Assembly (NCBI RefSeq): GCF_964355755.1
Contig: NC_092673.1
Coordinates: 17,357,648-17,421,647, forward strand
Direction: 5' to 3'
Source: Antedon mediterranea
Lineage: Eukaryota; Animalia; Echinodermata
Length of the DNA: 64,000 nt
Shown here piece after piece: positions 21,677 to 49,510 of this stretch (positions are counted from its first letter, which is position 1; each line of letters begins with the position of its first letter). A model generated the notes under the pieces. It was not told the origin of the DNA. It saw nothing but the letters and a program-made list of their open reading frames with translations, and did no database searches. A program made the position numbers and the translations under genes.

Positions 21677-21902
21677 AGATATATTGTCACCCGGAAAATA
21701 TATATTTTTCTTGAATATGCAATTTTAATGTCATAATAGTTATTCACTTTGACCAAAAATTGGAGCGAAAATAAAACTATTTACCTGAAAATAATGCAAA
21801 CAATAGTCAAATTATCAGACAATGGGTTGAAGCTGCAGAATTCCCTATTAAAAGTGTGATTTATTAATCTTCATTTTTCATGTTTTTGGGGGACAATATA
21901 TC
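21677..21902 (-). mobile_element. Kolobok-type MITE, inverted and internally deleted
   Basis: TTAA at 21673-21676, then AGATATATTGTCACC; reverse-complement homology to 43071-43414; the right TIR merges into the 37-bp array. Confidence 0.75.
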
Positions 21903-22895
21903 CAGTACCATGTGGACCCCTGTTGGGGGACAATATATCCAGTACCATGTGGACCCCTGTTGGGGGACAATATATATCCAGTACCATGTGGACCCCTGTT
22001 GGGGGACAATATATCCAGTACCATGTGGATCCCTGTTGGGGGACAATATATCCAGTACCATGTGGATCCCTGTTGGGGGACAATATATCCAGTACTATGT
22101 GGACCCCTGTTGGGGGACAATATATCCAGTACCATGTGGACCCCTGTTGGGGGACAATATATCCAGTACTATGTGGACCCCTGTGGGGGGACAATATATC
22201 CAGTACCATGTGTACCCCTGTTGGGGGACAATATATCCAGTACCATGTGGACCCCTGTTGGGGGACAATATATCCAGTACCATGTGGATCCCTGTGGGGG
22301 GACAATATATCCAGTACCATGTGTACCCCTGTTGGGGGACAATATATCCAGTACCATGTGGACCCCTGTTGGGGGACAATATATCCAGTACCATGTGGAC
22401 CCCTGTGGGGGGACAATATATCCAGTACCATGTGTACCCCTGTTGGGGGACAATATATCCAGTACCATGTGGACCCCTGTTGGGGGACAATATATCCAGT
22501 ACCATGTGTACCCCTGTTGGGGGACAATATATCCAGTACCATGTGGACCCCTGTTGGGGGACAATATATCCAGTACCATGTGGACCCCTGTTGGGGGACA
22601 ATATATCCAGTACCATGTGGACCCCTGTTGGGGGACAATATATCCAGTACCATGTGGACCCCTGTTGGGGGACAATATATCCAGTACCATGTGGACCCCT
22701 GTTGGGGGACAATATATCCAGTACCATGTGGACCCCTGTTGGGGGACAATATATCCAGTACCATGTGGACCCCTGTTGGGGGACAATATATCCAGTACCA
22801 TGTGGACCCCTGTTGGGGGACAATATATCCAGTACCATGTGGACCCCTGTTGGGGGACAATATATCCAGTACAGTGTACCATGTGGACCCCTGTT
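21888..22895. repeat. 37-bp minisatellite, about 27 copies, containing the MITE TIR
   Basis: Unit GGGGGACAATATATCCAGTACCATGTGGACCCCTGTT. Confidence 0.95.
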
Positions 22896-23667
22896 GAATA
22901 AATTTTAACCTGGTAAACTTAAGAACAACAATAATTAATGTTTAAATTTAAGCAACAACAAAATAAAGCTTATTGACTGAATTTAATACAAAAAAGTAAA
23001 TTAAATTAAATACCGTACATGTTTTTTTTGTTCATATGGGTTGTTAAAGGTGATACATTTTATATAAGGGCACACTCCATACTAATGGGGAATTTAGGTG
23101 TAAGTTTCATTTTGATTGTTTCAGAAACGGTAATGGTAACATGCATAATATAGTGAACAGACTTTTGTTATTATATCAATTTTTAATAATTTAGTTAAAT
23201 TATTTTATTAATTCAGAATAAGGATAACACTGGTCAACAACAAATATTTCACTATCGCCCATCATCCGCCTAATTTTAATGGTGTGCCCACATCCATAAG
23301 AGGATTTGTTGGAAAGCAGAATTAGAAATGGGTTAGATGGGTATCACTGAAATATTTGTGAAAAATTGTAATGTTGTTTACTACACCAACAACATAAGAA
23401 CCTTCATTCATGAATATAAACATTTGATAATATCAAATGAAGGAAATAAAAAAGATTACGTTGTTTCTTTTCCTCCATGATATCACACAGTGTGCCTTCT
23501 CTTAGTCTTATTGACTTAACCAACTTGACTGGACAATATCCAGATGCCAATTGTGTAGTAAAATGATTTCATATGCTCTAGTTAACATTGTCTTTACAAA
23601 AGGTTGTTCTTGGTTAATATGAAATGTATAGAAACTGAATAACACAGTTCATATTCTCATTAAATAG

Positions 23668-26636: not shown

Positions 26637-27701
26637 ATGGCAAGTAATGAAACAGTGTTAAAACCATATCCTAAGATTTTAGAGATACCATGTAATGATA
26701 TTGAATTTGGAGAACTTATTGGAAGTGGTTCAACGTGCAGTGTGTTGAAAGGGGTTTGGAAAACTAAAAAAGATGTGCCAGTTGCAATTAAACGTCTCAA
26801 CCATTTTCGAGAAATGGAAATTGTTACATTACGAAAAATTAAAGCTGATGAAGAAAAAAAACACATTGGTAGAAAGTTCATAATAGAGATTCTAGGGGTT
26901 AGTAAGAAGGATCATATGGATTGTATTGTAATGGAATATGTAGCAAATGGGTCATTATATGATTATTTAGGCCAGAAACGAGAACAGCAGCAACCTCTTG
27001 GGAATGACCAATTTTTCAACTGGACCCAGCAAGGTGCTCTTGCAATACAGTATCTTCATGAACTTGATATAATTCATCGAGATATCAAATCGCCAAATTT
27101 TTTAATTACTGATAAACATAATTTTAAACTTTGTGACTTTGGAATTTCCTGCATAAGTGATAAAACAGTTACAACAACATATACTGGGTCTCTTCCATGG
27201 ATGGCTCCTGAAAGTTTTGAGGCTTTTTTTAAATACGATGGGTCAAAAATAAAGGTATCAAAGCGTTCAGACATATACTCTTATAGTGTTGTGATATGGG
27301 AAATGTGGACTTGTCAAAAACCAGAGTTTTCGGTGAAAGTTGATGGTATGTCAGGGAAAATTTTCATTTAAAAATTTTGTTTAGCAATATTGCTAATCAA
27401 ACTGATTTTTAAGTCCAGAAACATAGTTTTGTATTGTATTTTTTGCTACACAATTTTCAAAATGTGTAGCAATAAGGTTGTTTTGTATAGCTTTTTGCTA
27501 CGCTACACTGGCGAAAATGTTCCCTGTATGTACCAGTTAGATGAAGGAACACCCACTAAGTTAAAGGATATGCTGCATAGTTGCTGGGAGGTGGACAGAA
27601 TGAAAAGGCCAAGTATTCCAGATATACTAGAAACTATGGAGGAATTGGCTATTACAATGGAGGAATTGGCTATTACAATGGAGGTTAAAGATTTTAAAGA
27701 G
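26637..27701 (+). CDS. Protein kinase domain, tyrosine-kinase-like group (MLK/ZAK-like); coding exons 1-2
   Basis: GSGSTCSV, VAIK, HRDIKSPN, DFG, GSLPWMAPE, SDIYSYSVVIWEM, CW...RPS. Confidence 0.92.
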
Positions 27702-30700
27702 GTATGTTTCCTACAATCAAATTCAGTATCGTTTCACTCCAGCTGGACTAGAGATTTTTTCCCAATGAGAAATACAAACTTGTCAAATCTAGTTCACCCA
27801 AATCCTGTGTATTGAAAATGCAATTACTAGCTAATGCAAGTGATCCTTGCCTACTTAAGATCCCCTTAGTCAAACTTAAAACTTCTGAACACTTCTTATT
27901 CTTATTATGATGACAGTCCACATAAATAGTATTTCTCTCCTTGAACATTATATTTCTTTATACAAACTGATTGGCTCTGATTTTTTTTATCATTTTCTCT
28001 GTAATTGTACTGTACTTGTCTTGTTTTTGTTATTTATTTATAAAAATGTTTTTTTGTGTTTATATGGTCATCTCGTGACAAGTACTTCTTGACATGTACT
28101 TCTAGTACTATAACTGCTGCTTGCTTTCAGCTCCTAAATGAGTCATCCTCTTGGGACGTAGCGATCTAAAGCAGCAGCGTGAAAAACATTGTTTTGATGA
28201 AATATAAAGTGCGTCTTATACATCAACGATAAAAAAATACTGATATTTTACTCTCAGTTAGGGAGTGCGTCTTATACACAGGTGCGACTTATACACTGAA
28301 ATATACGGTATACTATTCCCCACAATATACTCCGATTGTTTATGAATATATTTGATTTGATCTTTAATAATTTGCAGTATAATTTTTATTATGCTACTGT
28401 ACCTCCACACGCGTGGTCCAGTCCAAAAATAAACAAAAAACTAAAATGGCTATCGCCACCAACGGCCAACTTAGTTGAAACCAGGAAGTTGCAAGGTGAT
28501 GACAACGTGAACCCGGAAATTACTTCTACCGCGTACGGTTGAAAATCTACCGATGAAATCAATAATTTTGTTTTAAAATCCTTTATAATATCTTCCTAAG
28601 ATATAAATATGGAACAATATCGTAATAGTGAGAACTAATGTTATTAACGTTTCGGGAGGTAGGTATCCAAGGCGGAGATTTGTCTTTGAAGTTTTCCATT
28701 GTGCTTGCCTATGTCACAATTAAGCATAATTTATATATAGATTCATAATAAATGAAACAAAAGAGTATAATAATGAATGGATAAGCTGCTTTAAAAAAGA
28801 GGTACTTTTAATTTTCTTATAGTCAGTAGAAGAGTATATTCCATCTGCTATTACTGCTCATGGTACAGATGTTAAGGAAGCATATAATGAAGCATTGACT
28901 GAGGGATCTGTCAAAATCAATCTTGGAATGCTTAAAGTGATTGGACAGGAAGGTGTGGGGAAAACTTGCCTCATTAATGCCTGTCTTGGAAAAAAGTAAT
29001 ACATAGTTTAAGACAGTGAAATTGACAATATAAACTTTCCATCATTTCAGGCCTGTTTGATGTACAATGAGTGGGAGTATGGAATGCAGCAGGGGCACAG
29101 GGGCAGATCCGGTAAATTGTAATGCAAAAGATAAGACATCAAATTGAGCTCAGCCCTTCATTTCACTATTTTTAGGATTGATGATACAATTTTTGTCGCA
29201 ATGTGAAAGAAGTAAATCGATGATACAAATTTTGATTTGCGATGTGAAGGAATTGCATCGATGATATGAATTTTGTCACGATGTCCATGAAATGAATTGA
29301 GTAAAAAATATGCTGATGAAAAGTGATGAACAGATGCTTAATAATCATTACCATTAATACAGTAGTTAGATCGGATTGCCCAACCAATTTCTAACAATTA
29401 GGCCTATGCTACAATGGCTACTTGGTAGGGCTTGTTTATGAGGATCCACTATCAAGGCTAGCCCTCCAAGGCCTATGCCCTTTTAAGTCAGGCATAGCAT
29501 AATATAATTCATATATACAAACATAATAGGCATATAATATTATTATTTTGTTCTTACGGTGAGGTTATAGCCCTGGGGTTTGTCGTTTTTATGTCCGTTT
29601 TAAGAAAATAAATAAAACACAAAGTTATGATAATGTGAATGAGACATATGGAGAGGAGAGGTCCAGTACCAATGCTTTGTTAACCTTGTGGGGTTGACCC
29701 AGCAGAGATTGAGAGGATGACATATGCCGCCAATAGTTTTTACATTTCATTCAAATCTCGACAAAATTTGTATCACTCAACGCAAATTTATCCAATGCAT
29801 TTTATTCACATATACACGAATCATAGTTACGTAAACAGCGTTCTATACGGGAGTGTTTTTTACATTGAAAAAAGATAAAAATGTTATTTTAATTTTATTG
29901 ATATTGCAGCGCAATTAAATAGCAATAACTGAATACAATTTATTAAAATATATCAACCATCTTAAATTGATTGAATTAACTAATCAATCAGTTTTTGTAT
30001 TTATAAATCATAAATAAAGGTTAGAAATGTTTTGATTATTACATTATTATTATAAGTATGTATATTTATTTATTTATTGTTCTTTATTGGTTTTCAATTA
30101 CTCTATTTACTTTCAGATTTGAGAAAGACCATAACATTACAGATGGCATAGAAGTTATAAGGACAGCAAGCAAAACATGGAATGAGGCTAAAGCTGATAG
30201 TGGTAAACATGAATACATTTAGCACTGTTGTCATTTATCTCCATTATAATAAACACAAACAGTCTCATATCCTCAAATACGCTATAAAAAATATGATATA
30301 AAATAATATACTGTAGTAGATAAAATACTGTATTTTAGCCTGTTTCCGCTATAAGTAATTTTTTGGTGGTCCTGTTAAAATATTTTACCCAAACTGCCTT
30401 TCATGAGTTGCAATTCTTATTGACCTATGTAATAATAATAACTTTATTGTTTCTCTTTTATAACAGAGGCACAATTCTCAAGAGATGTGCAACAACAAAA
30501 AATTAATATGGACTTATCTTAATACACAATCAAATACAAACATTATAAAATATTGTTACATTAAAAAGTATATAAACATTAGGTTATAAAAATACATTCA
30601 ATACATTTGAGTGAAAAGTAAAAGATTGTGTTATGGAAGGATATTATAAATTTTGTTGCGTTCTTTCCATGCAGTTGTTACAATATTTGTCCAAAGAGGT

Positions 30701-33700
30701 TACTTGCTAAAATAGTTAATATTGGTTATACATTGGATTTGATATTCTTCATGAATTTCTAGGTCGTCAAAAAAAAGGTGATATTTAAGTTCAGGTGAGC
30801 TTGACGTGAATAAGTCCCATATTTTATGCAAATCATTGTGGTATAGATCTTCTTTAAGTTGTTTAAATATTGAGTTTCTAATATTTATTAATCTAGTACA
30901 ATTGAATACAAAATGATAAATTGTTTCTTTTTCACCACAATTACATAACAAACATGATCCTAAATTTTGTGGTGACCAAGCTTCCTTTCTTCCTTCGAGT
31001 GGTAATGAGTTAGAACGAGCTTTGAATTTTAGACTTGATGCATGTATACTAAGCATATTTTATCAATAAATGGGGTAAAGAATGTTGTAATTTTGCCAGG
31101 CCTTTCTACGACTCTTTTTCACCCACAAAAAAAAACCAGATTAATATAACTAATTGTAACTTTAAATAGTTTATTAATAGGCAAAGGATTCATAAACAAG
31201 TTTATAATATGCATATGTTAGGTAAAAATGCACAATCGGCATCTTCTATCAACTGGCAATGAGTCGCCAAGATGCGTCCTTTCTCCTGTATTGTTCAGCA
31301 TATATACAAATGAGTTTAAAATTAAATTTGATGACTGCTGTTTAATTAAGTATACAATTTGTTCAACCACATTATGAAATGAGTTGATAGTTCAGGGTAT
31401 AGTAATGTATCTATATATTTTTTTCTCTACAGGTAATCCTTCAAAACAGTATCAAAATTGATTTGAATCCTTACGACTAGCAAAGCAATCTAGCCACATA
31501 CTACATTACCTTAAATAGTACTAGTAGAATGAATTCCAATTTAGGACAATTTGTTCAACCGAATTATGAAATGAGTTGATAGTTCAGGGTATAGTCACAT
31601 ATCTATATATTTTTTTCTCTACAGGTAATCCTTCAAAACAGTATCAAAATTGATTTGAATCCTTACGACTAGCAAAGCAATCTAACCACATACTAAATTA
31701 CCTTAAATAGTACTAGTAGAATGAATTCCAATTTAGGACAATTTGTTCAACCGCATTATGAAATGAGTTGATAGTTCAGGGTATAGTCACATATCTATAT
31801 ATTTTTTTCTCTACAGGTAATTCCTTCAAAACAGTATCAAAATTGATTTGAATCCTTACGACTAGCAAAGCAATCTAACCACATACTAAATTACCTTAAA
31901 TAGTACTAGTAGAATGAATTCCAATTTAGGACAATTTGTTCAACCGAATTATGAAATGAGTTGATAGTTCAGGGTATAGTCACGTATCTATATATTTTTT
32001 TCTCTACAGGTAATCCTTCAAAACAGTATACAAAAATGGTCAAGAATAAATTGAGAGAAAGGAAAACTGTAAACGTAAGTCACTATAGTGTAATTGAAAC
32101 ATAAAATGAATAAAATAGTATCCACATGGATGTTCTACTAATACAAACCAGTCGTTTAAGCTTCTTTTGTAAATGAACCAATGAGACATATGACTCTATG
32201 AGCAGCAGTTTTAATTATCCAAAAAAACATTTTTTTTTTGTTCAATTCTTTTATAATTTGGTTTTGAAAGTTTTCTTCTGTTAAACGTAGATTATTTAAG
32301 TTTTGATAAACATTTAAATCTTTTATATCCGTTTACTCTTTTTTTATTTCAAGTGTCATGATGATAAACCACTTACATATGATTCCAATTACAAAAATGA
32401 TGATTACAGAAATGATGACGAGAACAATGATGATTACAGAAATAATGGTGTGTAACTCCCTTTCTAATTTTGTTGATATCGTTGTCAATAATGAATAAAT
32501 AAGTCCTAAAAGTATGAGTCATATTCATATATCATCGCTATTTGAAATAATCAATTAGATTGTGTTTAAAAAAAATTTATTTTCCAATTTAAAGTAACTA
32601 AACTATTACTATGTAATATAGTTTTTATGTGATCATATTTATATTTAACAATTATGTTGACAGTCAATTTTTTGTCAAAGTGAATAACTATTATGTGACA
32701 TTAAAATGGCATATTCAACAAAAAATGTGTTCTAGAGTTGACCAGCCGATTCTGTAAGACCTTGAAAAATAGTCATTAGGGACTTTACGGAACAGGACGG
32801 GAAGCCACAGAATGCTAATGAATAATTTATAACTTTTTGTGGACAATAAAGTTGCCATTTTCCCGTTTACGGAGAATGACTAGAAATAATGTACATATAA
32901 CCTTAAATATACAGTTCAAATTACACTTAAACATGGAATTTTTAAAACTCTAAATAATATTTGAACTTAATTTAATGGTTTAACGTTAAAAGCAATACAT
33001 TTTGTGCGGTGTTTGAATGCGAGACCTCTAGCTAGGAAGGCTATGCTGTATCACCAGAGCCAAGCGATTCAGAAGGGCCATGCGCTGCGAGGCAGGGGAG
33101 GGAGAGAGATACTGCCGGTTGTCGTCTTTGCACAAGGGTATGTAACTAATAAAACAGCTATGTCGCCTGTATATGATTTTACATTCTAGCGAACACAGGA
33201 TGTCCGTTGTCTTCCCCTAACTGTCCTGTTTTGGCTGGGGGTGGCCAGATGCCAAAATAAGCATGCTTGAATTTTACTTGTGTTTATGATAACCAACAAA
33301 ATTTGTTTCCACTACAGGTACTGCTACAGCAGCTGAAGCTATTCCAATTGATATAGATAAACAGTTAGTTAAAGATGTAATTCAGGATATTGTGCAAAAT
33401 AAGGAGACTTTGGAAGAAACATTCAACATCTGGGACCATGGGGGACAATTGATATACCATGGTATACATCGTGTAAGGCTGATTCAAACCTATGGAATTA
33501 TGCTTTCGTATCGTACGTGGCGTACAACTTCATGTCTGAACCACTAAAAGATTAGTCAAAGCCACCTCTTTATGACACTGACCTTTCGTTCGTTCGTTCT
33601 GAAGGTCCAAGATTAGTGTACAGATGCTTATGATACGATCAATGATTCTGACCTCCAACCAATCAAATTTACTCTTGCATGCCAGATGTTGGCTAAATCT

Positions 33701-36700
33701 GTTTCACTTCAGTTTGTAACGAAAGCGTTAATCAATTCAAAACACTTTGCTGTTTCTAACTACTGTGAAGTAGCTTTACGTCTAGAGGTATGAATGAATG
33801 CCAGGCTAGTGATGTGGAGGTCGTGGATTCGAGTCCCACCCAAGAATTACTTAAATACAAATTATGACAGAGTGGGGAAAATCATCTAACCAATTGCTAA
33901 GTATAATATGACCTTGCTTGCGATACGAAAGCATTTCTCCATGTGTCTGAACCTACCCTTAATTTCAAAATATGTAGTAGAACAGAACATTGATATTTTA
34001 TTGAATAAGATCTGGGTAAGATCTTTACTTCAAAAACATTAAACTCCACATCAGCCAGTTAAAAGGAAATGTTACTAACATAACTGTATGGCTAAGGTAT
34101 GGTATGCCTTTCTTGCCTATTCAGTAATCACAAATTTCTTTCCATGGTAACTGCTTATTGTTAATATTAAACATTTTCCATGCCTATATTCCAACAAAAC
34201 AAATCAAGTATTTTCAGTAACTCTTAGTTCTTATTTTTGTTTTCTATCATCACTGATTGTAGCCACAATATTATATGAATTTGTTATAGAGAATTGCTCT
34301 GATAAAAGGAGTAACAGAAATAGATTTTAGATATTTTTTATTTATATTAGGGTCCACCTACAAATTCAAATAATATTAACGAATATTAATCAGCCAATAT
34401 TTAAATAAAAAAATAATTTTTGCAGATCTTCATGACATCACGATCACTTTACATTGTAGTGTTTGATCTCAGTAAACCCTTGGATGATCTTGCTACTTTC
34501 ATTAATTCTACTGGAGTAAGTATTTCTAGAGCATGGCGGCAGTAAGGTATTGTGATTGAACAAGTCTTCTAATTTATAAAAACAAAAACAGTTTGACTAT
34601 TATAAAAGATTTTATTTCATACCTTCCAGATAAGATGTAGTAATGAACATTTTTTTTTAAACTAACCATTTCAAGTTTAACTTTAAGATGTTTTAAAGTG
34701 TTCTTATAATTTTTTTTTCAGAGAACATGTCAACATCATTGGACCAATCTCCAGTTCATATTATCTTACATCCTGTCAGTTTATTCTCATAGTCGTATTG
34801 TGGAAGAGGATGAGGAGAATGAAGTTGACAAACCAACTATCCTTATTGTGGGTACACATAAGGGGAAGCTTGGCTGGACTGAAGAACAGCAAAATGATGA
34901 GGTTAATACTTCTTTTGTTTCTATATTATTATAAATAGCCACAACCAAAGATACATTGCAGTTGTAACTGTTTTTAAATATTACTTTAAATAATTTACCA
35001 AATTGACACATTCTTATTATGCGTAAACTGTTATTAAAATTATATACAAACAGGCAGAAAAGGCGTTTAAAATTATTCAAGATGTGCTTAAAACAAAACC
35101 ATATGGAAATCATGTCTACCACAAATATTTTGCCATTGAAAACAGTCAACCAACTACAGATAAGAGCTTTAGTGATCTCAAACAAGTTATTGATACACTT
35201 ATGAAAGCTTTAGAAAAGCCTTTTCCTTTAAAGTGGATGCGTTTTCGATGTGATCTACAAGATCTAAGAGGAAAAAAACAGCCCTCCTTTTCTTTGTGTC
35301 CTTTAAAAGAGGTAAATGGTATTTGTTTTGTTTACATTTTTCGAAATATTAAGGCGCAAGTATCTATCAAGTATCTAAAAAAAAAAATTTACGTTTCTAA
35401 ATATAAGTACCCTTTAATTAAAAAATGTCCATAGACTAGCCAATTTAGATTACAATATCCAAAATCAAATTTTCATCTCAGATATTTGCTGCCATTGTTT
35501 TATTTATAAATTGTGTGTTTGAAAATACTGAGGTAATTAGCCATTGAAATTGAATATTTCAAACTATTTTTTCATGTAATACCCACATTTTTTATTTAAT
35601 TCTGAATAATACTAATTATTATTTCTTTTAGATCAAAATTCTGACAAGTAAGAATGGTATTGTTGAAGAAAAAAACAAATCAGTCCTGCTTAACTTCTTG
35701 TACGATCTTGGTGAAATTGTTTACATGCCTGACAACAAATTATTAAGAGATAAAGTCGTGCTTGATCCGATGAGGCTGGTTGAAATTGTCACCCAATTTG
35801 TAACTGTGGTTCCCCCAAAATATCCCGTAAGTAGACTCATGTAATGTCTTGCATTGTAAAAACATGTTAAAGTAGTATAATTACTGTTCTGTGTAATTTA
35901 TTATTCCTTAGCAAAGAATTTGTCATTGATAATATTTGATAGAGATGCTTAACATTTTCTATAGATAAAATAAAAGTATGCCGTAAGGCATCATTTGTAA
36001 TTTACTGTAATTTTTTTACAAGTTTTAATTAGTTCACTTTTAATATTCTGCTTTCAATCTATTATAATTGAAGCACTAGAAAAGCAAACTAACTTGGAGT
36101 AATTTCACAGTTTAACCCTTTCACTGCGTGTACCCGGTATTACCGGGTATAAACATGTCGTCGAACTTCATATAACCATCATTACCGGGTACGGTATAAA
36201 ACTATTTTCCTGCACTACAAGCGACCTCTATATTTTTTAATATTGTCTTCTGTAATGATGTCATTAGTATGCAAATTACCATTTTTTTACTCCAAACCGT
36301 AGACCAACCTTTTACCCACCACAAAAGTATTTACAAAATTATCTCATTTAGTATGTTTTTGCAATTAATTAAAAATCACCTGTCTCTCAATGTTATGCAC
36401 AGTGAAAGGGTTAAACCACAATACTGTATTATACCAACACATGGTTCATCTATATTCTTCTAAATGCTTACTGTATCTATATCCGTCATCCTCACAACTG
36501 TTATAAACACAAAATACGATGCATGGTTGATAGTTGGTGTTTTTTTAGTCTGCTAAATTTAGAGAATCTTTTGATAAGCTGGACAAAGGCATACTGGAAG
36601 AAGACTTGTTGCGAAAATTATGGAAAGATAGTAAAGTTGACAACGGAAAGAATTTTGAGTTCCTTGTAGCACTGATGATTCAATTAGGTTTTATTTGTGA

Positions 36701-39700
36701 GAGGGAGACAACCAGCAGCCAAGATGTGGCAAGTACATCTACAGTAGGTTTTGTTTCTTTAATCTTTCATTTTATGCATGTAAGATTTGGGATAAAAAGT
36801 ATTATTTTAATAGTTTGGATGTTTAATGTTCAGACAAAGTTTGAATAAACTTTCTAATGAAAATGTCTACATGACAGAGTATCTTTAGTTTGCTTAAAAT
36901 AGTTTAAATGGCATTGTTACAAATTAACAATTTCAGAAATCAGTTGGAAAACGATCCTTTTTTGTGCCACTGCGACTTGCTATCAAGACAAGTAAAGTGA
37001 GACAATTACCTGATGATTCACAATCTATCAGCAGGCCTATCTATTATGACTTTGAGGGATATCTGCCAGACGTGTTGTTTCCGTATTTAATTATTGAATT
37101 CCTTAACAAATTTCAAAAGGAAGGAGTTAACCCAATACTCGCATGTAATTATGCAGAACTTTACCTCGACGAAAATCATCATGTGACTTTGTCTCTTGAC
37201 AAATTTATTACTAAGAATGATGAGCGAAAGTTCTTGTTAAAGGTAATATCTAATCTCTAATGTTCAATAAATATCACTAAATTATGAAAGTTAAATATTG
37301 TTGCTTAGTCTTTCCCTAATCTGTCATGTCAGAATCTACTTTAAATGCATATAAAACTAAAACTAAATTCTGATAACAAAACATTACATCTATTTTTACT
37401 TTCTAGATGGCTATTAAAAGAACAGATTCTTTTGATGAAACGAGTAATGAGGCGCCTTCAGCTGAAGCATGTAAATTGGTATGTATCTATACCAGTTACG
37501 TTATCTATCTATTTGAAGGTAGTTATGAAAATACACGTAGAAAGTTTTCTCCTAAATTTTTTGTCAGGTTTGCTTGATGTCTGAAAATGTCTGTATATTT
37601 ACAATGTATACTGATTTTAAAAACCAATTACATATTACTTTCCAACATTGCATTGTATAGTATAATAATGAATGTTTATGAGATGGATGGTAAGAATATT
37701 TTATGAGTTGAAAGATTGACTGCACTATTTTTAACAAAGCAGAGCCGAAAATAGAGCAGTCAATGAATAACATATTCTCTCCATTCAACGAATACAAAAC
37801 ATTCATTATTTATTTTATAACACACCTATTTTTTATTAAATTTATCCATCGTAAATCAGTGACGAATGTTAGGTCCGGGAAGCTAGGTCATTTAAAAAGG
37901 CAGTGATCCAACTTTGGACACGGAGTAGAACCGTAAACAGCGTAAACAAATTACATCCATGTTCTCTTTTATTTTTGTAATTGAATTGTAAGTAATTTTA
38001 ATATGTATCTGCCTATTAAAAGATTTATTCCCAATCAAGTTTTCAGATTTACACCATAAATCTAAAAACATTGCCTGCCTCACATTACATAAAATGTCTA
38101 ACTTTGTAAGCTACTGCATCATTGATGCTTTCATATTTGTTGATATGATATGTATTAAATTCAAATCAACATTAAATTTATATCTTTAGGTTTTGTCAAC
38201 AGTTGAGAAGTCATTCGAGCAATCTAAAGATGGTGGTAGAAGAGGGATTCCATTCAAGAGATGCATTCCTTGTCGGTGTAGTGATCAATTAGACAAAAAG
38301 CATTTTCAAATTCTTAAAGATTTCCAATGCAGGAAGTTTACATGCACAGAAACTGGCAAGTCTGTTACGATGGATGTCACATGTTACAAGCGGCTGTTTG
38401 GAGGTAAGAGTCATTAAATTTATTTATTTTTATTAAGTACATTTTCATTAATACACTACTTTCTTCATGAAGGACTCTCACTCATCCCTAGAGCACAGGA
38501 AACTGAAAAACAAAAGGCTATTTCTGTTCTATAAACAATTTGTGACCTATTTCTGCAAAAAAGTGACATGTTTAAATAATTATAGAATAGAAAAAGAGGA
38601 TACTGTACCTTATTTGAAAATAGACATATTTGATAATACTCTTCCAGTAGTAGTACAACATAATCATTGTTGATAATCTATACATTGTTACAATATGCTG
38701 CTATTAACTGTGATATCTTCATTCCTCTTACCAGTAGTAGTACAACATAATCATTGTTGATAATCTATACATTGTTACAATATGCTGCTATTAACTGTGA
38801 TATCTTCATTCCTCTTACCAGTAGTAGTACAACATAATCATTGTTGATAATCTATACATTGTTACAATATGCTGCTATTAACTGTGATATCTTCATTCCT
38901 CTTACCAGTAGTAGTACAACATAATCATTGTTGATAATCTATACATTGTTACAATATGCTGCTATTAACTGTGATATCTTCATTCCTCTTACCAGTAGTA
39001 CTACTATCAGAATCATTATTGATAATCTATACATTGTTACAACATGCTGCTATTAGCTGTGATATCTTCATTCCTCTTACCAGTAGTAGTACTATCAGAA
39101 TCATTATTGATAATCTATACATTGTTATAACATGCTGCTATTAGCTGTGATATCTTCATTCCTCTTACCAGTAGTAGTACTATCAGAATCATTATTGATA
39201 ATCTATACATTGTTACAACATGCTGCTATTAGCTGTGATATCTTCATTCCTCTTACCAGTAGTAGTACTATCAGAATCATTATTGATAATCTATACATTG
39301 TTATAACATGCTGCTATTAGCTGTGATATCTTCATTCCTCTTACCAGTAGTAGTACTATCAGAATCATTATTGATAATCTATACATTGTTACAACATGCT
39401 GCTATTAGCTGTGATATCTTCATTCCTCTTACCAGTAGTAGTACTATCAGAATCATTATTGATAATCTATACATTGTTACAACATGCTGCTATTAGCTGT
39501 GATATCTTCATTCCTCTTACCAATAGTAGTACTAGTAGAATCATTATTGATAATCTATACATTGTTACAACATGCTGCTATTAGCTGTGATATCTTCATT
39601 CCTCTTACCAATAGTAGTACTAGTAGAATCATTATTGATAATCTATACATTGTTACAACATGCTGCTATTAGCTGTGATATCTTCATTCCTCTTACCAGT

Positions 39701-42700
39701 AGTAGTACTATCAGAATCATTATTGATAATCTATACATTGTTACAACATGCTGCTATTAGCTGTGATATCTTCATTCCTCTTACCAGTAGTAGTACTATC
39801 AGAATCATTATTGATAATCTATACATTGTTACAACATGCTGCTATTAGCTGTGATATCTTCATTCCTCTTACCAGTAGTAGTACTATCAGAATCATTATT
39901 GATAATCTATACATTTTTACAACATGCTACTATTAGCTGTGATATCTTCATTTCTCTTACCAGTAGTAGTACTATCAGAATCATTATTGATAATCTATAC
40001 ATTGTTACAACATGCTACTATTAGCTGTGATATCTTCATTCCTCTTACCAGTAGTAGTACTATCAGAATCATTATTGATAATCTATACATTGTTACAACA
40101 TGCTGCTATTAGCTGTGATATCTTCATTCCTCTTACCAGTAGTAGTACTATCAGAATCATTATTGATAATCTATACATTTTTACAACATGCTGCTATTAG
40201 CTGTGATATCTTCATTCCTCTTACCAGTAGTAGTACTATCAGAATCATTATTGATAATCTATACATTGTTACAACATGCTGCTATTAGCTGTGATATCTT
40301 CATTCCTCTTACCAGTAGTAGTACTATCAGAATCATTATTGATAATCTATACATTGTTATAACATGCTGCTATTAGCTGTGATATCTTCATTCCTCTTAC
40401 CAGTAGTAGTACTAGTAGAATCATTATTGATAATCTATACATTGTTACAACATGCTGCTATTAGCTGTGATATCTTCATTCCTCTTACCAGTAGTAGTAC
40501 TATCAGAATCAATATATAATAGCAATAATGTCACTCTGCAGTGACAATACCTGCTAAATGTGGTGTTCACAAAAGTAAATTGTTGCCTATAAAACAACAG
40601 TTACATTTGTGATAACATGATCTGTCATAGCTTGCATCCTAGCATATAGTATTGAATGAATTATTGTTTTATCATTATTTCATTTGTTACAGCGGATGAT
40701 GTTGGGACATCCGGTTCAAATCAAGGTATGTTAAATTTAATATAAATAATATTTGGGTAATACTATTACTCTACTAATTTCTTTAAGAAGAACTCCCTCT
40801 CTCTCATTATTTCAAACTTTTTTGTGTGTACTTATATTGATGGTATCATACTCATTTTTTCATTCCAGAAATCTCAGAGAATGAATTCCTGCAACTGTTA
40901 ACTGATACAGCAGCATGGTTTGATGGACTTGGATATCTCAAAATATTGAAAGTTTTATACAAAGACCATCTTTCAAAATCGAATGTAGAGGTGGAAAGAG
41001 CTAGTAGTGTTTGGGATCTGCTACAGGATTTAAGAGCCTCAGGAAGTTTGAGTCCATCAAACCTTACTATTCTATATGACACAATAACAGTAACCAAGCA
41101 ATTTGGCTTCCAGTCAAACGTTGAGAATCAACCTTCTGAAGATATTAAGGATCATGTAGTATCAATGTTGACACCTTTCAGACAGAAGGTTTATCAACTG
41201 GGAGTGGAACTTACGAAGGATGAAGTATCAAAACTTGCCAGGTTATTTAACAATATATTGGTAAAGACATATCAAGACAGCTGGAGTATGATTATGGACT
41301 TTGAACATAGAGGGATCATTGATAAGGATTTCACAAAGTTGGTTGAGTTTCTTAAAGTTTTAGAACAAAATGGAATGACAAAAGCTAGGAAGATTTTCAT
41401 TGATGGTTGGTTGGTTGGTTTATTTGTTTTAGTTCATCATCATGGTTCATTGTTAAAACATATAGTACATACTGTAGTACACTACAATCAAGTAAAAGTA
41501 CTGTAACAAATTAAACATTTTAGGCAGATTCAAATTATTATGATGTCCCTTTCTGTCTGTCTGCTATTATAGTGGATTAAGGATATCAACCAACATTCGG
41601 TTAAATGGCAATTCAGCTGAATTGAATGACAAGTTAGTAAAATAACAATAATATGCTCAATGAGTCCAATGGAAAATGAGCTGAACTGAAACGTATGTGT
41701 GTATTCCATGCTATTATCCCTATCAATCAGATTGACCCAAACCTTTGGAACATAATAATAATCTGCATTTTAAATTTGTGAATGCCTCTCAATTCCTACA
41801 AAGCCCAGCATACCATTTGAGGGTCAAAAGACCGACTCTGGGGCTGATTCAGATCTTTACTATTGCAAGAGGATCATTAAGTTGTATAAGAAAGCCACAG
41901 GTTGACAGCGTACCCATCACCACCTCCATGCCAATTAATGCACCCGGACACTTCATAAACTTAGAGTTTAGATTATGTGACTTCTGCCTATCCCATTAAT
42001 AACTTACTGAAACTAGAGAATGCAAAACTCCACCTACAATATAATTTTCCTACACATTAAAATCTCTCCCTGAGAAAAGTGGTTTGTTTTTTTCAGTAAG
42101 GTAATTTGGCCTAATTGCACTGCATAACAAATTAATGTGAATTTTCCATGGTTGAAATCCTGCCTCAAATTGGGCTGAAGAAGGGAGTCTTTTTTAATCA
42201 TTTCTTTTTTTTTTAATAATTTTTTTGTAAATTTTGACATTTGACCCTGCCTGTTCAAAATTGAATTACATTATGATGGATAATTTTGGCCAAATTTCAG
42301 TTTAAAAGTGTGGCCTGGCAGGATATATAAAGAAAACATTTATAGTAGGTTGTGACCTTGACCTTTCACGGAAGCATCCACCTACGCAGAATGAAAAAAA
42401 ACAAACAAGAAGTCAACAAGTAGTCTACATAATTAGATTTATTCTAAATAAGTCTTAAGTATATATGTCTTCTGGTATAGGTATGTCTTCTGGTGCAGGC
42501 GCATCTTCTGGTGCAGGCGCATCTTCTGGTGCAGGTGTGTCTTCTGGTGCAGGTGTGTCTTCTGGTGCAGGTGTGTCTTCTGGTGCAGGTGTGTCTTCTG
42601 GTGCAGGTGTGTCTTCAGGTGCAGGTCTTTCGTCTGACACAGGTGAATGTCAAGGTAACTATCAAGGCACTAGAGCAACACTCTACAGCAAAAAAATATA

Positions 42701-44056
42701 TTATTGTTGATATTTAGCCAGGAGTTTTTGTATACAATATTAAAATAGACTAGAAATCTTTATTACCATTCTATGCTAAGTGATTGTAGTTGTTTATGTA
42801 GGGTGTAATCTAAATTGATTAAAATCTATATTTATCAGGCAACCTTAAAATAAATAAATAAATAAAGTTTTTCTTTGACTTTCTCCAAATCTATTCCATT
42901 CATTTCTTTTTCAGGTAGACATTATACATTAATCCTGTTTGTTGCTTATTGTTCACACAATATCAGCTTAGATAATTAAACTTTCCAAAATGTTATCACA
43001 AATGTTCGTTTAAAGTTTATATGAATGTTTCTATGTAATAGTCAGCAGTTATCGTATAGCATATACTTAAAGACGTATTGTCCCCCAAAAACATGAAAAA
43101 TGAAGATTAATTAAATCAGACTTTGAATAGGTTATTATGTAGTTTTAAAAAAGTAAATCACTTCCGAAGAAAAAAAACGGGAAAAAATAATGTTTTCACT
43201 TATAAAATAACATGATAAATGGTTAAATTCAACCAAAAATCCATTGGCTGGCAGCCAATTTGACCATTTTTTGCTTTAACTTCCAGTTTTTTCAGGTAAA
43301 TAATTTTGTTTTCGATCCAATTTTTGGTCAAAGTCAATAACTATTAGTGACATTAAAATGGCATATTCAACAACAAAAATTTAAAAAAAATATTTTCAGG
43401 GGGACAATACATCTTTAAATCAACAAACATCCAAACTATTTATTTTTTATTTAATCAAATTTATTTAATTTTAACATACTATTAAATGTTTTAGGTTTAA
43501 CTGTGTTCATACTTTATTAAGGGTTAGGGTGTTTAATTGTTTAATTATTTCTCACCATATCTATTACTTAATGAGCTTACTTTGTTGTTATTTCAGGTAT
43601 GCATCATGGCGGGTAAGTATTTTCCACATATGTACTGTTATTTGATCAAATTAATTTTGTTAATAAATTGGCACTTTGTGTGTGATTTACAGAATACATT
43701 AAACTTTTATTTTCATTTCATATATTTTGCCATATAAAATGTATAAAAAACAATTAAAAGAAAACAAAATCAATAAAAAAGAAAAACATTATACTCTGCC
43801 TCCCCACAAAGGCCGACAGGATTACCAAAAGCATAAGTAAATACTGTCTAGTGGCTCTCGTCAAGGTCACTACAGGGCTGGTGATAATCAACTAAAGCCT
43901 GTTTTCTAGTCTACGTTATTCGATTTCAACACGATTGTTTGAAAACAATCAAGTTGAAAGAAACAACAATTTTAATACTTTATTAGAATTTTAATTATTT
44001 AATTGTACCTTGTTATTTCTAGTCGAAAGAAAAAGAGACGTTGCAAGTTGTTATAA
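26637..44056 (+). CDS. Roco-family protein: TKL kinase - Roc - COR - tandem DED-like - SGA linker - polybasic CaaX (about 1258 aa, spliced)
   Basis: Exons: 26637-27345, 27511-27701, 28823-28995, 30117-30202, 32010-32074, 32354-32447, 33318-33472, 34426-34515, 34722-34901, 35054-35311, 35632-35826, 36549-36743, 36937-37242, 37407-37478, 38190-38403, 40693-40725, 40869-41405, 42481-42654, 43597-43612, 44023-44056. Phases are consistent and the total is 3777 nt. All introns are GT-AG except the uncertain first-intron acceptor. An in-frame TGA upstream of 26637 fixes the start. Confidence 0.78.
28823..35311 (+). CDS. Roc GTPase domain exons
   Basis: G1 GQEGVGKT; switch I ITDGI; G3 WDHGGQ followed by IFMTSRSLYIVVFDLS; G4 LIVGTHKG; G5 region FAIENS; COR start P-LKW. 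Confidence 0.88.
30430..31056 (-). mobile_element. Non-LTR retrotransposon 3' fragment (RTEX-like, CCHC zinc knuckle)
   Basis: ARSNSLPLEGR...CLLCNC...ETIYHFVFNC; AATAAA and a (TTA)n tail near 30430-30450 on the minus strand. Confidence 0.6.
31355..32030 (+). repeat. ~192-bp tandem repeat (about 3.5 copies) that includes the exon-5 acceptor
   Basis: TTTCTCTACAG|GTAAT with the AG ending at 31432, 31624, 31816 and 32009. Confidence 0.9.
33476..33959. mobile_element. MITE (PIF/Harbinger-like) inserted at the exon-7 donor, with an internal tRNA-SINE-like fragment
   Basis: Imperfect TIRs including ATGCTTTCGTATCG / CGATACGAAAGCAT; TA(A) flanks; B-box-like GATTCGAGTCCC at about 33826. Confidence 0.5.
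35632..38403 (+). CDS. COR domain exons
   Basis: LNFLYDLGEIVY...VVLDPMRLV, GILEEDLLRKLW, LMIQLGFIC, FFVPLRL, LPDVLFPYLI, and a Cys/His-rich end (CIPCRC...H...C...C). Confidence 0.82.
36116..36410. mobile_element. piggyBac-type MITE
   Basis: TTAA|CCCTTTCACTG ... CAGTGAAAGGG|TTAA. Confidence 0.8.
38640..40511. repeat. Intronic 85/88-bp minisatellite, about 21 copies
   Basis: Unit ...TTGATAATCTATACATTGTTACAACATGCTGCTATTAGCTGTGATATCTTCATTCCTCTTACCAGTAGTAGTAC...; repeated spurious ORFs every 88 bp. Confidence 0.95.
40869..41405 (+). CDS. Tandem death-effector-like (death-fold) domains, exon 17
   Basis: FLQLL...LKVLYKD...SVWDLLQDLRASGSLSPSNLTILYD, then FRQKVYQLGVELTKDEVSKL...MIMDFEHRGII...FLKVLEQNG; both fit the DED helical pattern. 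Confidence 0.62.
42012..42400. mobile_element. Helentron-like non-autonomous element
   Basis: AAACTAGAGAATGC start, TGACCTTGACCT motif and A-rich end. Confidence 0.35.
42468..42630 (+). repeat. 18-bp repeat encoding (SSGAGV)n inside a symmetric phase-1 exon
   Basis: Unit TCTTCTGGTGCAGGTGTG, about 9 copies; exon 42481-42654 is 174 nt. Confidence 0.75.
43071..43414 (+). mobile_element. Kolobok-type MITE
   Basis: TTAA TSD on both sides; TIRs AGACGTATTGTCCCCC / GGGGGACAATACATCT. Confidence 0.82.
43597..44056 (+). CDS. Terminal micro-exons encoding GMHHGGRKKKRRCKLL* (polybasic + CaaX)
   Basis: 16-nt exon 43597-43612 (TTTCAG| ... |GTAAGT, phase 1 to 2) joined to 44023-44056 (TTCTAG|T CGA AAG AAA AAG AGA CGT TGC AAG TTG TTA TAA). 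Confidence 0.72.
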
Positions 44057-44957
44057 GGTATAGTATTAAACTTTAAATTTGAATTTGTTTCTAAAGTCAT
44101 TGCATTGTTTTTCTATTCAAAGACTAATGTAGTTTCAAAATGTAAGAAATCATTTGTCTTTTTTCCTACAAAACCTATAAAATGCTTTTTGTTGTAGTCA
44201 TTTGCAGTATTTTAAAACAACTTTAAATGAAAGCACTCAAGAATATTTCTAAAAAGATGAGGATTTATGAAACATTTTTCTCTTTTAGATTACTGGTTGG
44301 TAGTTACTGTATATATGATGGATTAACTGCTGTTGGTGGCTGCAGTATCTGGTGTGTACATAGTGACCAGGTCTCTTACTCAGTCAAAAAATGCAACAGA
44401 TGAAAAACAGTACACTCTTCACCAATCTAACAGTAGATTTCATACATTTTAAAGGCATTGTATGGATAATATTGAAGATAGATGTGAAATTATAAAGATA
44501 TGAAAGCCTATGGGAGTTTTGACACAATGACAAATGACTAAAGATCCAGGGAGTTATTGCCATCGGAGTCAAAGTTACAATCCGCTACCACCACCCCTCT
44601 TTTTATAAAAAACCAAATAAACAAAAAAATTATTTTCCCCTCAAGAAATTCAGCCATGCTTGTCAGATGAAACGACAACATTGATTTAAGAATTTTTGTA
44701 AAATACAGCTTTCTTAAAAAAGAACTTTACAAATTTCAGTTTATTACCATTCCAAATTCTATTATTGATTTTATAAAAAGAATAAAAAAATAAAATTAGA
44801 CTTTTTAGTTTGCCTCAAGGAAATTGTGTAATTGACCAAAAAAGGACCAAAGAAAAAAGAAATCATTAAATGAAATAAAGTAGGTAATGCAATGCCTGTA
44901 TTATGTATTTAAATAATAACTCATGTTTGATATTTAGTTTTATTAAGCTTAACATCC

Positions 44958-45750
44958 TGTAGTAAACAGTTGTCAACATATAGAAGCTGTAACTCAGTTG
45001 TCAATTGTGCACTCAATGCTGTAGTAGACAGTTGTCAACATATTGAAGCTGTAACTCAGTTGTCAATTGTGTACACAATGCTGTAGTAGACAGTTGTCAA
45101 CATATTGAAGCTGTAACTCAGTTGTCAATTGTGTACTCAATGCTGTAGTAGACAGTTGTCAACATATTGAAGCTGTAACTCAGTTGTCAATTGTGTACTC
45201 AATGCTGTAGTAGACAGTTGTCAACATATTGAAGCTGTAACTCAGTTGTCAATTGTGTACTCAATGCTGTAGTAGACAGTTGTCAACATATTGAAGCTGT
45301 AACTCAGTTGTCAATTGTGTACTCAATGCTGTAGTAGACAGTTGTCAACATATTGAAGCTGTAACTCAGTTGTCAATTGTGTACTCAATGCTGTAGTAGA
45401 CAGTTGTCAACATATTGAAGCTGTAACTCAGTTGTCAATTGTGTACTCAATGCTGTAGTAGACAGTTGTCAACATATTGAAGCTGTAACTCAGTTGTCAA
45501 TTGTGTACTCAATGCTGTAGTAGACAGTTGTCAACATATTGAAGCTGTAACTCAGTTGTCAATTGTGTACTCAATGCTGTAGTAGACAGTTGTCAACATA
45601 TTGAAGCTGTAACTCAGTTGTCAATTGTGTACTCAATGCTGTAGTAGACAGTTGTCAACATATTGAAGCTGTAACTCAGTTGTCAATTGTGTACTCAATG
45701 CTGTAGTAGACAGTTGTCAACATATTGAAGCTGTAACTCAGTTGTCAATT
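44958..45750. repeat. 62-bp minisatellite, about 13 copies
   Basis: Unit CTGTAGTAGACAGTTGTCAACATATTGAAGCTGTAACTCAGTTGTCAATTGTGTACTCAATG. Confidence 0.95.
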
Positions 45751-46234: not shown

Positions 46235-47608
46235 CACACAATTTGTTGTGGATAAATCCAAAAGCTGTAGGAATCACTGTATTTATAGTACAGGGATTTT
46301 AACAACACAATTTGTTGTGGATAAATCCAAAAGCTGTAGGAATCACTGTATTTATAGTACAGGAATTTTAACAACACAATTTGTTGTGGATAAATCTAAA
46401 AGCTGTAGGAATCACTGTATTTATAGTACAGGGATTTTAACAACACAATTTGTTGTGGATAAATCTAAAAGCTGTAGGAATCCCTGTATTTATAGTACAT
46501 GGATTTTAACAACACAATTTGTTGTGGATAAATCCAAAAGCTGTAGGAATCACTGTATTTATAGTACAGGGATTTTAACAACACAATTTGTTGTGGATAA
46601 ATCTAAAAGCTGTAGAAATCACTGTATTATAGTACAGGGATTTTAACAACACAATTTGTTGTGAATAAATCCAAAAGCTGTAGGAATCACTGTATTTATA
46701 GTACAGGGATTTTAACAACACAATTTGTTGTGAATAAATCCAAAAGCTGTAGGAATCACTGTATTTATAGTACAGGGATTTTAACAACACAATTTGTTGT
46801 GGATAAATCTAAAAGCTGTAGGAATCACTGTATTTATAGTACAGGGATTTTAACAACACAATTTGTTGTGGATAAATCTAAAAGCTGTAGGAATCATTGT
46901 ATTTATAGAACAGGGATTTTAACAACACAATTTGTTGTGGATAAATCTAAAAGCTGTAGGAATCACTGTATTTATAGTACAGGGATTTTAACAACACAAT
47001 TGTTGTGGATAAATCTAAAAGCTGTAGAAATCACTGTATTATAGTACAGGGATTTTAACAACACAATTTGTTGTGGATAAATCTAAAAGCTGTAGGAATC
47101 CCTGTATTTATAGTACAGGGATTTTAACAACACAATTTGTTGTGGATAAATCCAAAAGCTGTAGAAATCACTGTATTTATAGTACAGGGATTTTAACAAC
47201 ACAATTTGTTGTGGATAAATCTAAAAGCTGTAGGAATCCCTGTATTTATAGTACAGGGATTTTAACAACACAATTTGTTGTGGATAAATCTAAAAGCTGT
47301 AGGAATCCCTGTATTTGTAGTACAGGGATTTTAACAACACAATTTGTTGTGAATAAATCCAAAAGCTGTAGGAATCACTGTATTTATAGTACAGGGATTT
47401 TAACAACACAATTTGTTGTGGATAAATCTAAAAGCTGTAGGAATCACTGTATTTATAGTACAGGGATTTTAACAACACAATTTGTTGTGGATAAATCTAA
47501 AAGCTGTAGGAATCACTGTATTTATAGTACAGGGATTTTAACAACACAATTTGTTGTGGATAAATCTAAAAGCTGTAGGAATCACTGTATTTATAGTACA
47601 GGAATTTT
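46235..47608. repeat. 69-bp minisatellite, about 20 copies
   Basis: Unit CACAATTTGTTGTGGATAAATCTAAAAGCTGTAGGAATCACTGTATTTATAGTACAGGGATTTTAACAA. Confidence 0.95.
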
Positions 47609-47764
47609 TACAAAAAATGACCAAATTGATAATGATGTTATTATATTAGTGATGTGCAATTGTCAGTCTGTGTTAACTGTCACCCTTTTTAATTCATATT
47701 TTGCAATATCAATGTTGTCATCCTTCATGCTGCTTTTTGGTTTGGCCTACTGATTAATAGACCT

Positions 47765-49510
47765 ACTGTAAATATATAATAAGTCAATTAACATTACTAT
47801 TTTGTTCTCTCTTGGTTAAAGTTTGGCCTACTGTACTTAATAGGCCTATAATAAATATAATAAGTCAATTAACATTACTATTTTGTTCTCTCTTGGTTAA
47901 AGTTTGGCCAACTGTACTTAATAGGCCTAACAATAAATATAATAAGTCAATTCACATTAATATTTTGTTCTCTCTTAGTTAAAGTTTGGCTTACTGTACT
48001 TAATAGGCCTAACAATAAATATAATAAGTCAATTCACATTAATATTTTGTTCTCTCTTGGTTAAAGTTTGGCCAACTGTACTTAATAGGCCTATAATAAA
48101 TATAATAAGTCAATTCACATTAATATTTTGTTCTCTCTTAGTTAAAGTTTGGCCTACTGTACTAAATAGGCCTATAATAAATATAATAAGTCAATTCACA
48201 TTAATATTTTGTTCTCTCTTAGTTAAAGTTTGGCCAACTGTACTTAATAGGCCTATAATAAATATAATAAGTCAATTCACATTAATATTTTGTTCTCTCT
48301 TGGTTAAAGTTTGGCCAACTGTACTTAATAGGCCTATAATAAATATAATAAGTCAATTCACATTACTATTTTGTTCTCTCTTGGTTAAAGTTTGGCCTAC
48401 TGTACTAAATAGGCCTATAATAAATATAATAAGTCAATTCACATTAATATTTTGTTCTCTCTTGGTTAAAGTTTGGCCTACTGTACTAAATAGGCCTATA
48501 ATAAATATAATAAGTCAATTCACATTACTATTTTGTTCTCTCTTGGTTAAAGTTTGGCCTACTGTACTAAATAGGCCTATAATAAATATAATAAGTCAAT
48601 TCACATTAATATTTTGTTCTCTCTTGGTTAAAGTTTGGCCAACTGTACTTAATAGGCCTATAATAAATATAATAAGTCAATTCACATTACTATTTTGTTC
48701 TCTCTTGGTTAAAGTTTGGCCAACTGTACTTAATAGGCCTATAATAAATATAATAAGTCAATTCACATTAATATTTTGTTCTCTCTTGGTTAAAGTTTGG
48801 CCAACTGTACTTAATAGGCCTATAATAAATATAATAAGTCAATTCACATTACTATTTTGTTCTCTCTTGGTTAAAGTTTGGCCTACTGTACTAAATAGGC
48901 CTATAATAAATATAATAAGTCAATTCACATTAATATTTTGTTCTCTCTTAGTTAAAGTTTGGCCTACTGTACTAAATAGGCCTATAATAAATATAATAAG
49001 TCAATTCACATTAATATTTTGTTCTCTCTTAGTTAAAGTTTGGCCAACTGTACTTAATAGGCCTAACAATAAATATAATAAGTCAATTCACATTAATATT
49101 TTGTTCTCTCTTGGTTAAAGTTTGGCCAACTGTACTTAATAGGCCTAACAATAAATATAATAAGTCAATTCACATTACTATTTTGTTCTCTCTTGGTTAA
49201 AGTGTGGCCTACTGTACTTAATAGGCCTATAATAAATATAATAAGTCAATTCACATTACTATTTTGTTCTCTCTTGGTTAAAGTTTGGCCTACTGTACTA
49301 AATAGGCCTATAATAAATATAATAAGTCAATTCACATTAATATTTTGTTCTCTCTTATTTAAAGTGTGGCCTACTGTACTTAATAGGCCTAACAATAAAT
49401 ATAATAAGTCAATTCACATTAATATTTTGTTCTCTCTTAATTAAAGTGCGGCCTACTGTACTAGGCCTAACAATAAATAGAATAAGTCAATTAACATTAA
49501 TATTTTGTTC
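47765..49510. repeat. 81-bp minisatellite, about 21 copies
   Basis: 27-aa periodic spurious ORF VKVWPTVLNRPIINIISQFTLIFCSLL. Confidence 0.95.

Follow-up and report, generated by a model that had tools for sequence, protein, structure and literature searches.

The stretch of DNA analyzed here, referred to as the window, is 64,000 nucleotides of AT-rich animal DNA from the feather star Antedon mediterranea (assembly GCF_964355755.1, contig NC_092673.1, positions 17,357,648 to 17,421,647 of the forward strand). On its + strand, positions 26637–44056 carry a gene of the Roco family that we read, with somewhat better than even confidence, as a mosaic: an intact chain encoding Roc, COR and a tandem death effector domain (DED), onto which a kinase exon 1.1 kb upstream is likely spliced, the kinase copy being interrupted by an insertion. 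As judged from the reading frames, the insertion would cut or alter any kinase-bearing product, and the main intact product of the present haplotype may be kinase-less. The protein is likely an immune or cell-death switch from a family that has been rebuilt by exon shuffling.

A 20-exon model with GT-AG introns was built across 26637–44056 and translated into 1262 amino acids with zero internal stops. The preliminary description of this DNA had proposed about 20 phase-consistent exons and 1258 amino acids; the exon chain translates through, and the length has been revised. Splice sites were scored using crude matrices trained on 14 sites of the same gene and are given as percentiles among all such sites. 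A candidate exon at 30467–30501 and a donor at 32451 were dropped, as each breaks the frame. Pfam was run exon by exon on 11 single exons and matched PK_Tyr_Ser-Thr on exon 1 (E 5e-39), COR-A at 35632–35826 (E 1e-7; 32.5 bits for this single exon, slightly below the cut-off of 35.3) and DED in two stretches at 40871–41404 (E 1e-10); Roc matches on single exons were weak (E 0.008 and 0.06), and no COR-B match was found on the window exons. Related proteins are cited by P numbers. In single alignments, residues 316–1002 of the model were 87.5% identical to P0008 and residues 285–1192 were 67% identical to P0002, so independent RefSeq models bear out the Roc-COR-tandem-DED exon chain, which, as originally proposed, is real. 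No Rfam family was found within 24000–46000. One sequencing run (X1), guessed to be RNA, covered the introns and had no exon-exon joint among the 15 joints listed (of 104); it was treated as DNA with no bearing on splicing. Its summed depth was 5484 in the bin containing the kinase insertion and was also high within the gap between kinase and Roc, which gives no copy number and was not used as evidence.

The kinase exon (26637–27701, +) encodes a TKL kinase of ZAK/MLK-like type and is 84% identical to the kinase of P0024 (XP_071948948.1), an A. mediterranea kinase-VLIG fusion. The motifs VAIK, HRD, DFG and APE are all intact, and the nearest solved single kinases are ZAK, DLK, CTR1 and TAK1, which together with the Pfam match confirms the class first assigned to it. 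Because the similarity to ZAK is modest (E 7e-27), the domain is described as one that would work like ZAK/MLK rather than as a ZAK orthologue. The ZAK/MLK MAP3 kinases carry a leucine zipper together with SAM or SH3/CRIB accessory domains; none of these is present here, and the N-terminal helix of Roc begins within ~40 residues of the kinase. At the end of the exon (27636–27684) is an in-frame 21-bp tandem duplication that is not in P0024.

Within this exon lies a 175-bp insertion resembling a miniature inverted-repeat transposable element (27352–27526), with 14-bp terminal inverted repeats that match at 13 of 14 positions and a perfect 5-bp flanking duplication. It was the sole site with such a combination in a scan of the 64-kb window, and no second copy was found within the window. 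Because of the inverted repeats and target duplication, and because the P0024 kinase reads uninterrupted across the same place, the kinase was formerly a single exon; what had been taken for the first intron of the gene is, by its structure, this insertion. Left unspliced, the insertion brings in an in-frame stop at 27369–27371, and translation ends after 244 residues. In-frame GT-AG routes around it exist. The donor used in the preliminary model (after 27349) is in the 41st percentile of GT sites and its acceptor in the 75th. The strong donor after 27345 stays in frame only when joined to weak acceptors nearby or to 28827, and the latter route preserves the Roc frame at the cost of the last kinase helices. 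The kinase otherwise contains no stop or frameshift and sits on a short terminal branch, 0.032 as compared to 0.17 for P0024, which fits selection on the kinase until a recent insertion. With the insertion removed, the segment between helices alphaF and alphaH has 30 codons, against 29 in P0024 and 39–43 in 10 other kinases; the missing residues are presumably the usual site of helix alphaG.

The Roc domain is encoded by eight exons (28823–35311, +), each 55–99% identical to its best paralogue: 28823–28995 with G1, 30117–30202 with G2, two insert exons (32010–32074 and 32354–32447), 33318–33472 with G3, 34426–34515, 34722–34901 with G4, and 35054–35311 with G5 and the start of COR. Five further + strand exons complete COR (35632–35826, 36549–36743, 36937–37242, 37407–37478 and 38190–38403); the COR exons are 95–100% identical to those of A. 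mediterranea P0008/P0009, and a 33-nt linker exon (40693–40725, +) that follows is 90% identical to P0009/P0015. Of the Roc G-motifs, all of which had been reported as present, G1 (GQEGVGKT), G2 (TDG), G3 (WDHGGQ) and G5 were found; G4 reads GTHKG and lacks its Asp. This residue is absent from all 15 A. mediterranea proteins recovered in the Roc-COR search described below (13 with Gly, 2 with Ala), is present in 4 of 4 from Anneissia japonica, and occurs in 15 of 65 motifs overall. Since G4 and G5 vary among Rocos according to a 2019 review (PMC6337361), the altered G4 does not exclude membership. P0008, 87.5% identical, was modeled as a stand-in with low confidence (mean predicted local distance difference test score, pLDDT, 54.8), and its best fold matches were LRRK2, LRRK1 and the C. 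tepidum Roc-COR (E 1e-12 to 1e-10, ~540 columns). Over most of residues 1–243, the N-terminal half of Roc, pLDDT was below 50, and the model was not used for the G4 pocket. With Roc followed directly by COR, the protein is a Roco; it belongs to neither the DAPK1 nor the LRRK group. At the first insert exon is a 192-bp tandem array (3.5 copies, 31354–32035) in which the acceptor of exon 32010, with the bases that open the exon, recurs at 31433, 31625 and 31817. These three extra copies offer decoy 3′ splice sites as strong as the genuine one, and reading on from them meets a stop.

The tandem DED is encoded by a single phase 1-1 exon (40869–41405, +) and was identified by Pfam and by its predicted fold. 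The model of this exon (pLDDT 89.9) matched the caspase-8 tandem DED with Z 16.9 (root-mean-square deviation 2.6 over 164 residues), the best non-DED fold had Z 8.0, and the top Foldseek matches were caspase-8/cFLIP. Solved structures searched by sequence with the tandem DED gave no match; only the fold search succeeded. The two DED-like modules of the preliminary description are thus two packed DEDs. All 5 hits to the exon were crinoid, 4 from A. mediterranea (67–78% identical) and 1 from Anneissia japonica (42%), and the module is 67–72% identical to the DED modules of the NACHT proteins (NLRs) P0001 and P0003.

The 3′ end of the gene consists of a Gly/Ser/Ala-rich exon of 18-bp repeats (42481–42642, +), the inclusion of which is uncertain and which weakly matches the P0012 tail (E 0.003), a 16-nt microexon with strong splice sites (43597–43612, +) that sets the frame of the last coding exon, and a polybasic CaaX-type tail ending in CKLL (44023–44056, +, stop at 44054–44056). 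The acceptors of the tail exons at 42481–42642 and 44023 are moderate (84th and 89th percentile). Provided that the microexon is used, the protein ends in RKKKRRCKLL-stop. This tail aligns with the basic stretch preceding the transmembrane helix of P0012, and the stop falls where P0012 has Lys. Located 3′ of the stop is a decayed transmembrane-tail exon (44289–44410, +; tblastn E 0.014, in two frames), which has deletions and frame changes relative to the P0012 transmembrane exon and an acceptor in the 99.7th percentile. The alignment indicates that the polybasic CaaX end, which is present in the model as first described, is the juxtamembrane stretch of a transmembrane paralogue truncated by a stop. 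A strongly hydrophobic C-terminal segment is found in 6 of the 15 A. mediterranea Roc-COR hits.

This tail bears on an improbable alternative, that the locus as a whole has lately become a pseudogene within a birth-and-death cluster and the CaaX end is accidental. Such a locus would account for the insertion with its stop in the kinase, the stop in place of the P0012 Lys, the decayed last exon, a 3′ untranslated region that is likely spliced, and the three extra exon-32010 acceptors in the 192-bp array. It agrees poorly with ~880 Roc-COR-tandem-DED codons in 15 exons, which are free of stops and frameshifts and retain every splice site. The 120-bp transmembrane exon, by contrast, carries several indels, so the core outlasted the decay of the tail. 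For that reason, and because none of 23,627 positions tested in 24 related proteins had a Cys-x-x-small/hydrophobic end after at least 4 basic residues, a real switch from a transmembrane to a lipid anchor is plausible, as read from one sequence and with the microexon used.

The Roc-COR search, in which the best 7992 candidates of 621–1978 amino acids were scored, yielded 19 proteins, 15 from A. mediterranea and 4 from Anneissia japonica. Thirteen of these 15, together with P0024 and the NLR P0001, are assigned to a contig of one and the same length. Their layouts vary and include tandem-DED-Roc-COR-tandem-DED-transmembrane (P0002) and ankyrin-Roc-COR (P0023); P0006 (XP_071947615.1) has two different Roc-COR units in tandem, an ankyrin-like start and a transmembrane tail, and may be a fused annotation. 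The kinase-Roc-COR part of P0018 (XP_071959976.1), an A. mediterranea protein of kinase-Roc-COR-death domain-death domain layout, was searched against 1.84 billion representatives (best 150 of 177 hits, E 1e-30). Using home-made profiles, Roc or COR was found in 79 of 175 retrieved proteins, with a tandem DED after COR in 23, a kinase before Roc in 1 (P0018) and a kinase after COR in 1. LRRK2 and DAPK1 were not recognized among the listed hits, so distant kinase-first Rocos could be missed. Pfam on 32 of the Roc/COR proteins revealed Macro, Neuralized, TIR, HEPN, KIX and fn3 as further partners; fusions of Roc-COR to KIX/TAZ zinc finger, Macro, HEPN, or Neuralized with death and TIR domains are found in P0050, P0069, P0065, P0074 and P0133. 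To judge from these sequences, the feather-star Roco family is expanded and Roc-COR-tandem-DED is a common layout in it.

Exon by exon, the best relatives of the window gene differ: P0024 for the kinase (84%), P0006 for the first Roc exon (84%), P0008/P0009 for COR (95–100%), and P0002 (80%) and the NLR P0001 (72%) for the tandem DED. These identities indicate a mosaic of a kinase like that of the kinase-VLIG protein, a tandem DED shared with NLRs and a tail from a transmembrane paralogue. A chimera assembled from two paralogous regions of a repetitive cluster would also have nearest relatives that differ by exon, and close paralogues are many; we consider it very improbable, as independent A. 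mediterranea RefSeq models are also mosaic and the boundaries lie within introns, with matching phases. In the Roc-COR tree (21 rows; P0038, P0050 and P0064 of 24 were omitted for want of an anchor motif), the window protein grouped with four kinase-less paralogues (clade support 100/100), and the approximately unbiased (AU) test rejected placing it together with P0018 (p-AU 1e-9). In the kinase tree (14 rows), the window kinase and P0024 stood apart from P0018, which grouped with Anneissia kinases lacking Roc, and a joint clade was rejected (p-AU 3e-4). Since both trees reject a shared origin with P0018, kinase-first Rocos arose twice, if the join in the window is real, although gene conversion among paralogues could blur this reading. 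On these trees, the layout of DAPK1 probably arose again with TKL kinases, and perhaps did so twice.

Whether the kinase belongs to the Roc-COR chain was judged from the splice sites between them. The donor after 27701 is in the 99.9th percentile and lies exactly where similarity to P0024 stops, and the first strong acceptor after it (28823, 97th percentile) lies in frame, 1.1 kb downstream of the kinase exon. No VLIG or other partner exon of 24 related proteins was found elsewhere in the window, and P0018 has a similarly short link between kinase and Roc. Splicing of the kinase onto the Roc-COR chain is therefore a fair, slightly favored prediction from sequence. The kinase-first order claimed for this gene stands in that kinase, Roc-COR and tandem DED lie in order on one strand, and a kinase-first Roco, P0018, is annotated in A. 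mediterranea, with tandem death domains rather than DED; the join itself is a prediction. Phase agreement, which had been offered in its support, is no test of it, because exon 28823 has acceptors in both phase 0 and phase 1.

Several points weigh against the mosaic with a spliced-on kinase, and some of them make up the case for two units, a possible but rather doubtful arrangement. One would be a Roc-COR-tandem-DED gene that lacks a kinase and is driven by a promoter of its own at ~28.4–28.66 kb. The other, upstream, would be an orphan or separate kinase exon, now decaying, that recombination within the cluster left behind, such as the first part of a kinase-VLIG gene. A candidate internal promoter and first exon were placed at 28401–28658 (+): 28401–28600 is CpG-rich (99th percentile) and holds 2 of the 7 ETS-like motifs in the window, an ATG at 28638 opens the Roc frame, and the donor after 28658 is in the 99.8th percentile. 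Four paralogue models begin inside the first Roc exon, a kinase is absent from the closest Roc-COR paralogues (P0008, P0009, P0014 and P0015), and the nearest kinase is fused to VLIG. The insertion lies inside the kinase exon, every in-frame splice route around it needs a weak donor or a weak acceptor, and the kinase exon, if read through without splicing, reaches a stop at 27815. Both the window kinase and P0024 are short by ~10 residues between alphaF and alphaH, the Roc G4 has Gly in place of the usual Asp, and a comparable polybasic CaaX is found at the end of none of the examined paralogues. Switching by GTP, prenylation of the tail and a part in immunity are all predictions. On the other side, a transcribed kinase exon is expected to use its near-consensus donor, which is in frame with the acceptor 1.1 kb on; the CpG-rich patch may belong to a repeat; the same species has a kinase-first Roco (P0018); and both promoters could work, which is compatible with fusion. 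Both starts may be used, with the alternative first exon, as predicted, giving a kinase-less protein.

For the mosaic Roco, the following mode of action is proposed. As the protein has no leucine-rich repeats (LRRs), ankyrin or other sensor repeats, it would likely act downstream of a sensor, as an adaptor or effector. The polybasic, probably geranylgeranylated tail would hold it at the membrane in place of the transmembrane anchor of the family. The tandem DED would assemble together with its counterparts in crinoid NLRs or with a partner of caspase-8/FADD type. This clustering would be gated by nucleotide-dependent cycling of the Roc-COR dimer and would switch on the kinase by trans-phosphorylation. 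An immune or death role is proposed from what is established about DED assemblies and from the AP-GTPase conflict systems predicted in PMC8195603, and immunity is suggested by the rapid turnover of paralogues and by exons shared with NLR and VLIG genes. If DAPK1 is a guide, GTP could hold back rather than stimulate a kinase that precedes Roc (PMC6337361, PMC3458246). More tentatively, and unlikely to hold in every part, an exon-swapping kit of feather stars might serve three classes of immune NTPase, Roco, NLR and VLIG, passing kinase and tandem-DED cassettes of one exon each between them; the DAPK1 layout would then have been re-created twice from unrelated TKL kinases, and here a stop codon would have swapped a transmembrane for a lipid anchor, giving a working membrane-bound kinase/DED switch whose Roc lacks the guanine-specifying Asp.

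Elsewhere in the window, LINE-type reverse transcriptase open reading frames (ORFs) matching RVT_1 are located at 5270–7402 (+, E 4e-32) and 14254–15573 (−, E 4e-36). A head-to-head pair at 60372–62972 combines a P2RX7_C-like Cys/His ORF on the + strand (E 4e-11) with a MULE/DDE-like transposase in two adjacent ORFs on the − strand, a layout resembling that of a Kolobok-type transposon. Long minisatellite arrays, with units of 88, 62 and 69 bp and others, occupy 21850–22940, 38639–40515, 44957–45750, 46236–47613, 47979–49619 and 56420–57328 and yield repetitive spurious ORFs.

If the reading is true, TKL-kinase-first Rocos in which the kinase abuts Roc would be natural constructs for studying the control of a kinase by Roc-COR from either side, a question that the opposite behavior of LRRK2 and DAPK1 leaves unsettled (PMC3458246). 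The family would illustrate how cassettes have recently been exchanged between Roco, NLR and VLIG genes in an animal, and offers a G4 variant that is fixed in one genus, together with an apparent transmembrane-to-prenyl anchor switch. Its weight is lessened in that Roc-COR with a death fold is already known in several invertebrates, the present copy is damaged and the fusion is a prediction.

Among known proteins, P0018 is similar in having a TKL-type kinase directly before Roc, the same Roc-COR subfamily with GTHKG, and a tandem death fold after COR; it differs in having two death domains rather than a tandem DED, in lacking a CaaX end, and in a kinase merely 35% identical to that of the window, with altered HRD/DFG motifs. 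XP_071947399.1, XP_071948801.1 and other A. mediterranea and Anneissia japonica Roc-COR-tandem-DED proteins share a core up to 96% identical, and several are membrane-anchored, but they lack the N-terminal kinase and their anchors are transmembrane helices, not CaaX. P0024 shares the kinase, including the short alphaF–alphaH segment, and its similarity stops at the same exon end, whereas its partner GTPase is VLIG/URGCP rather than Roc-COR and its kinase has no insertion. A literature search gave no description of a kinase on a VLIG/URGCP very large GTPase, and no description of crinoid Rocos or of a kinase-Roc-COR-DED protein was found among the papers listed in searches of the open-access literature.

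Lineage-specific multigene Rocos are described, in the excerpts available, from Trichoplax (PMC4104024) and Aplysia (TIR-Rocos; PMC9334734), both as expansions, and from brown algae as shuffled genes (PMC11378527), and CARD, death or TIR domains are attached in these invertebrate Roco expansions; the same excerpts differ from the present case in describing no crinoid family, tandem DED, VLIG-shared kinase exon or CaaX end. PMC11378527 reports ~40 animal Roco domain combinations and mentions N-terminal kinases among them, and in its full text these may include a kinase-Roc-COR-DED-type architecture. LRRK1/LRRK2 and the Dictyostelium Rocos (group 2) have a TKL kinase and Roc-COR in one chain, as predicted here, and the Roc-COR fold of the stand-in P0008 matches LRRK (E 1e-12), but in these proteins the kinase follows COR, and the window protein lacks LRR, ankyrin and WD40 repeats. 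DAPK1 (Roco group 3) has a kinase before Roc-COR, the order predicted here, a death fold after it and no LRR, but its kinase is of CaMK type and it has one death domain, in contrast to the TKL kinase and tandem DED of the window. In DAPK1, ankyrin repeats lie between kinase and Roc, whereas in the window the TKL kinase would abut Roc. According to the 2019 review, DAPK1 is the only Roco group with a kinase preceding Roc-COR (PMC6337361). By this analogy, the window protein, if fused, would work like a DAPK1-type layout made from other parts.

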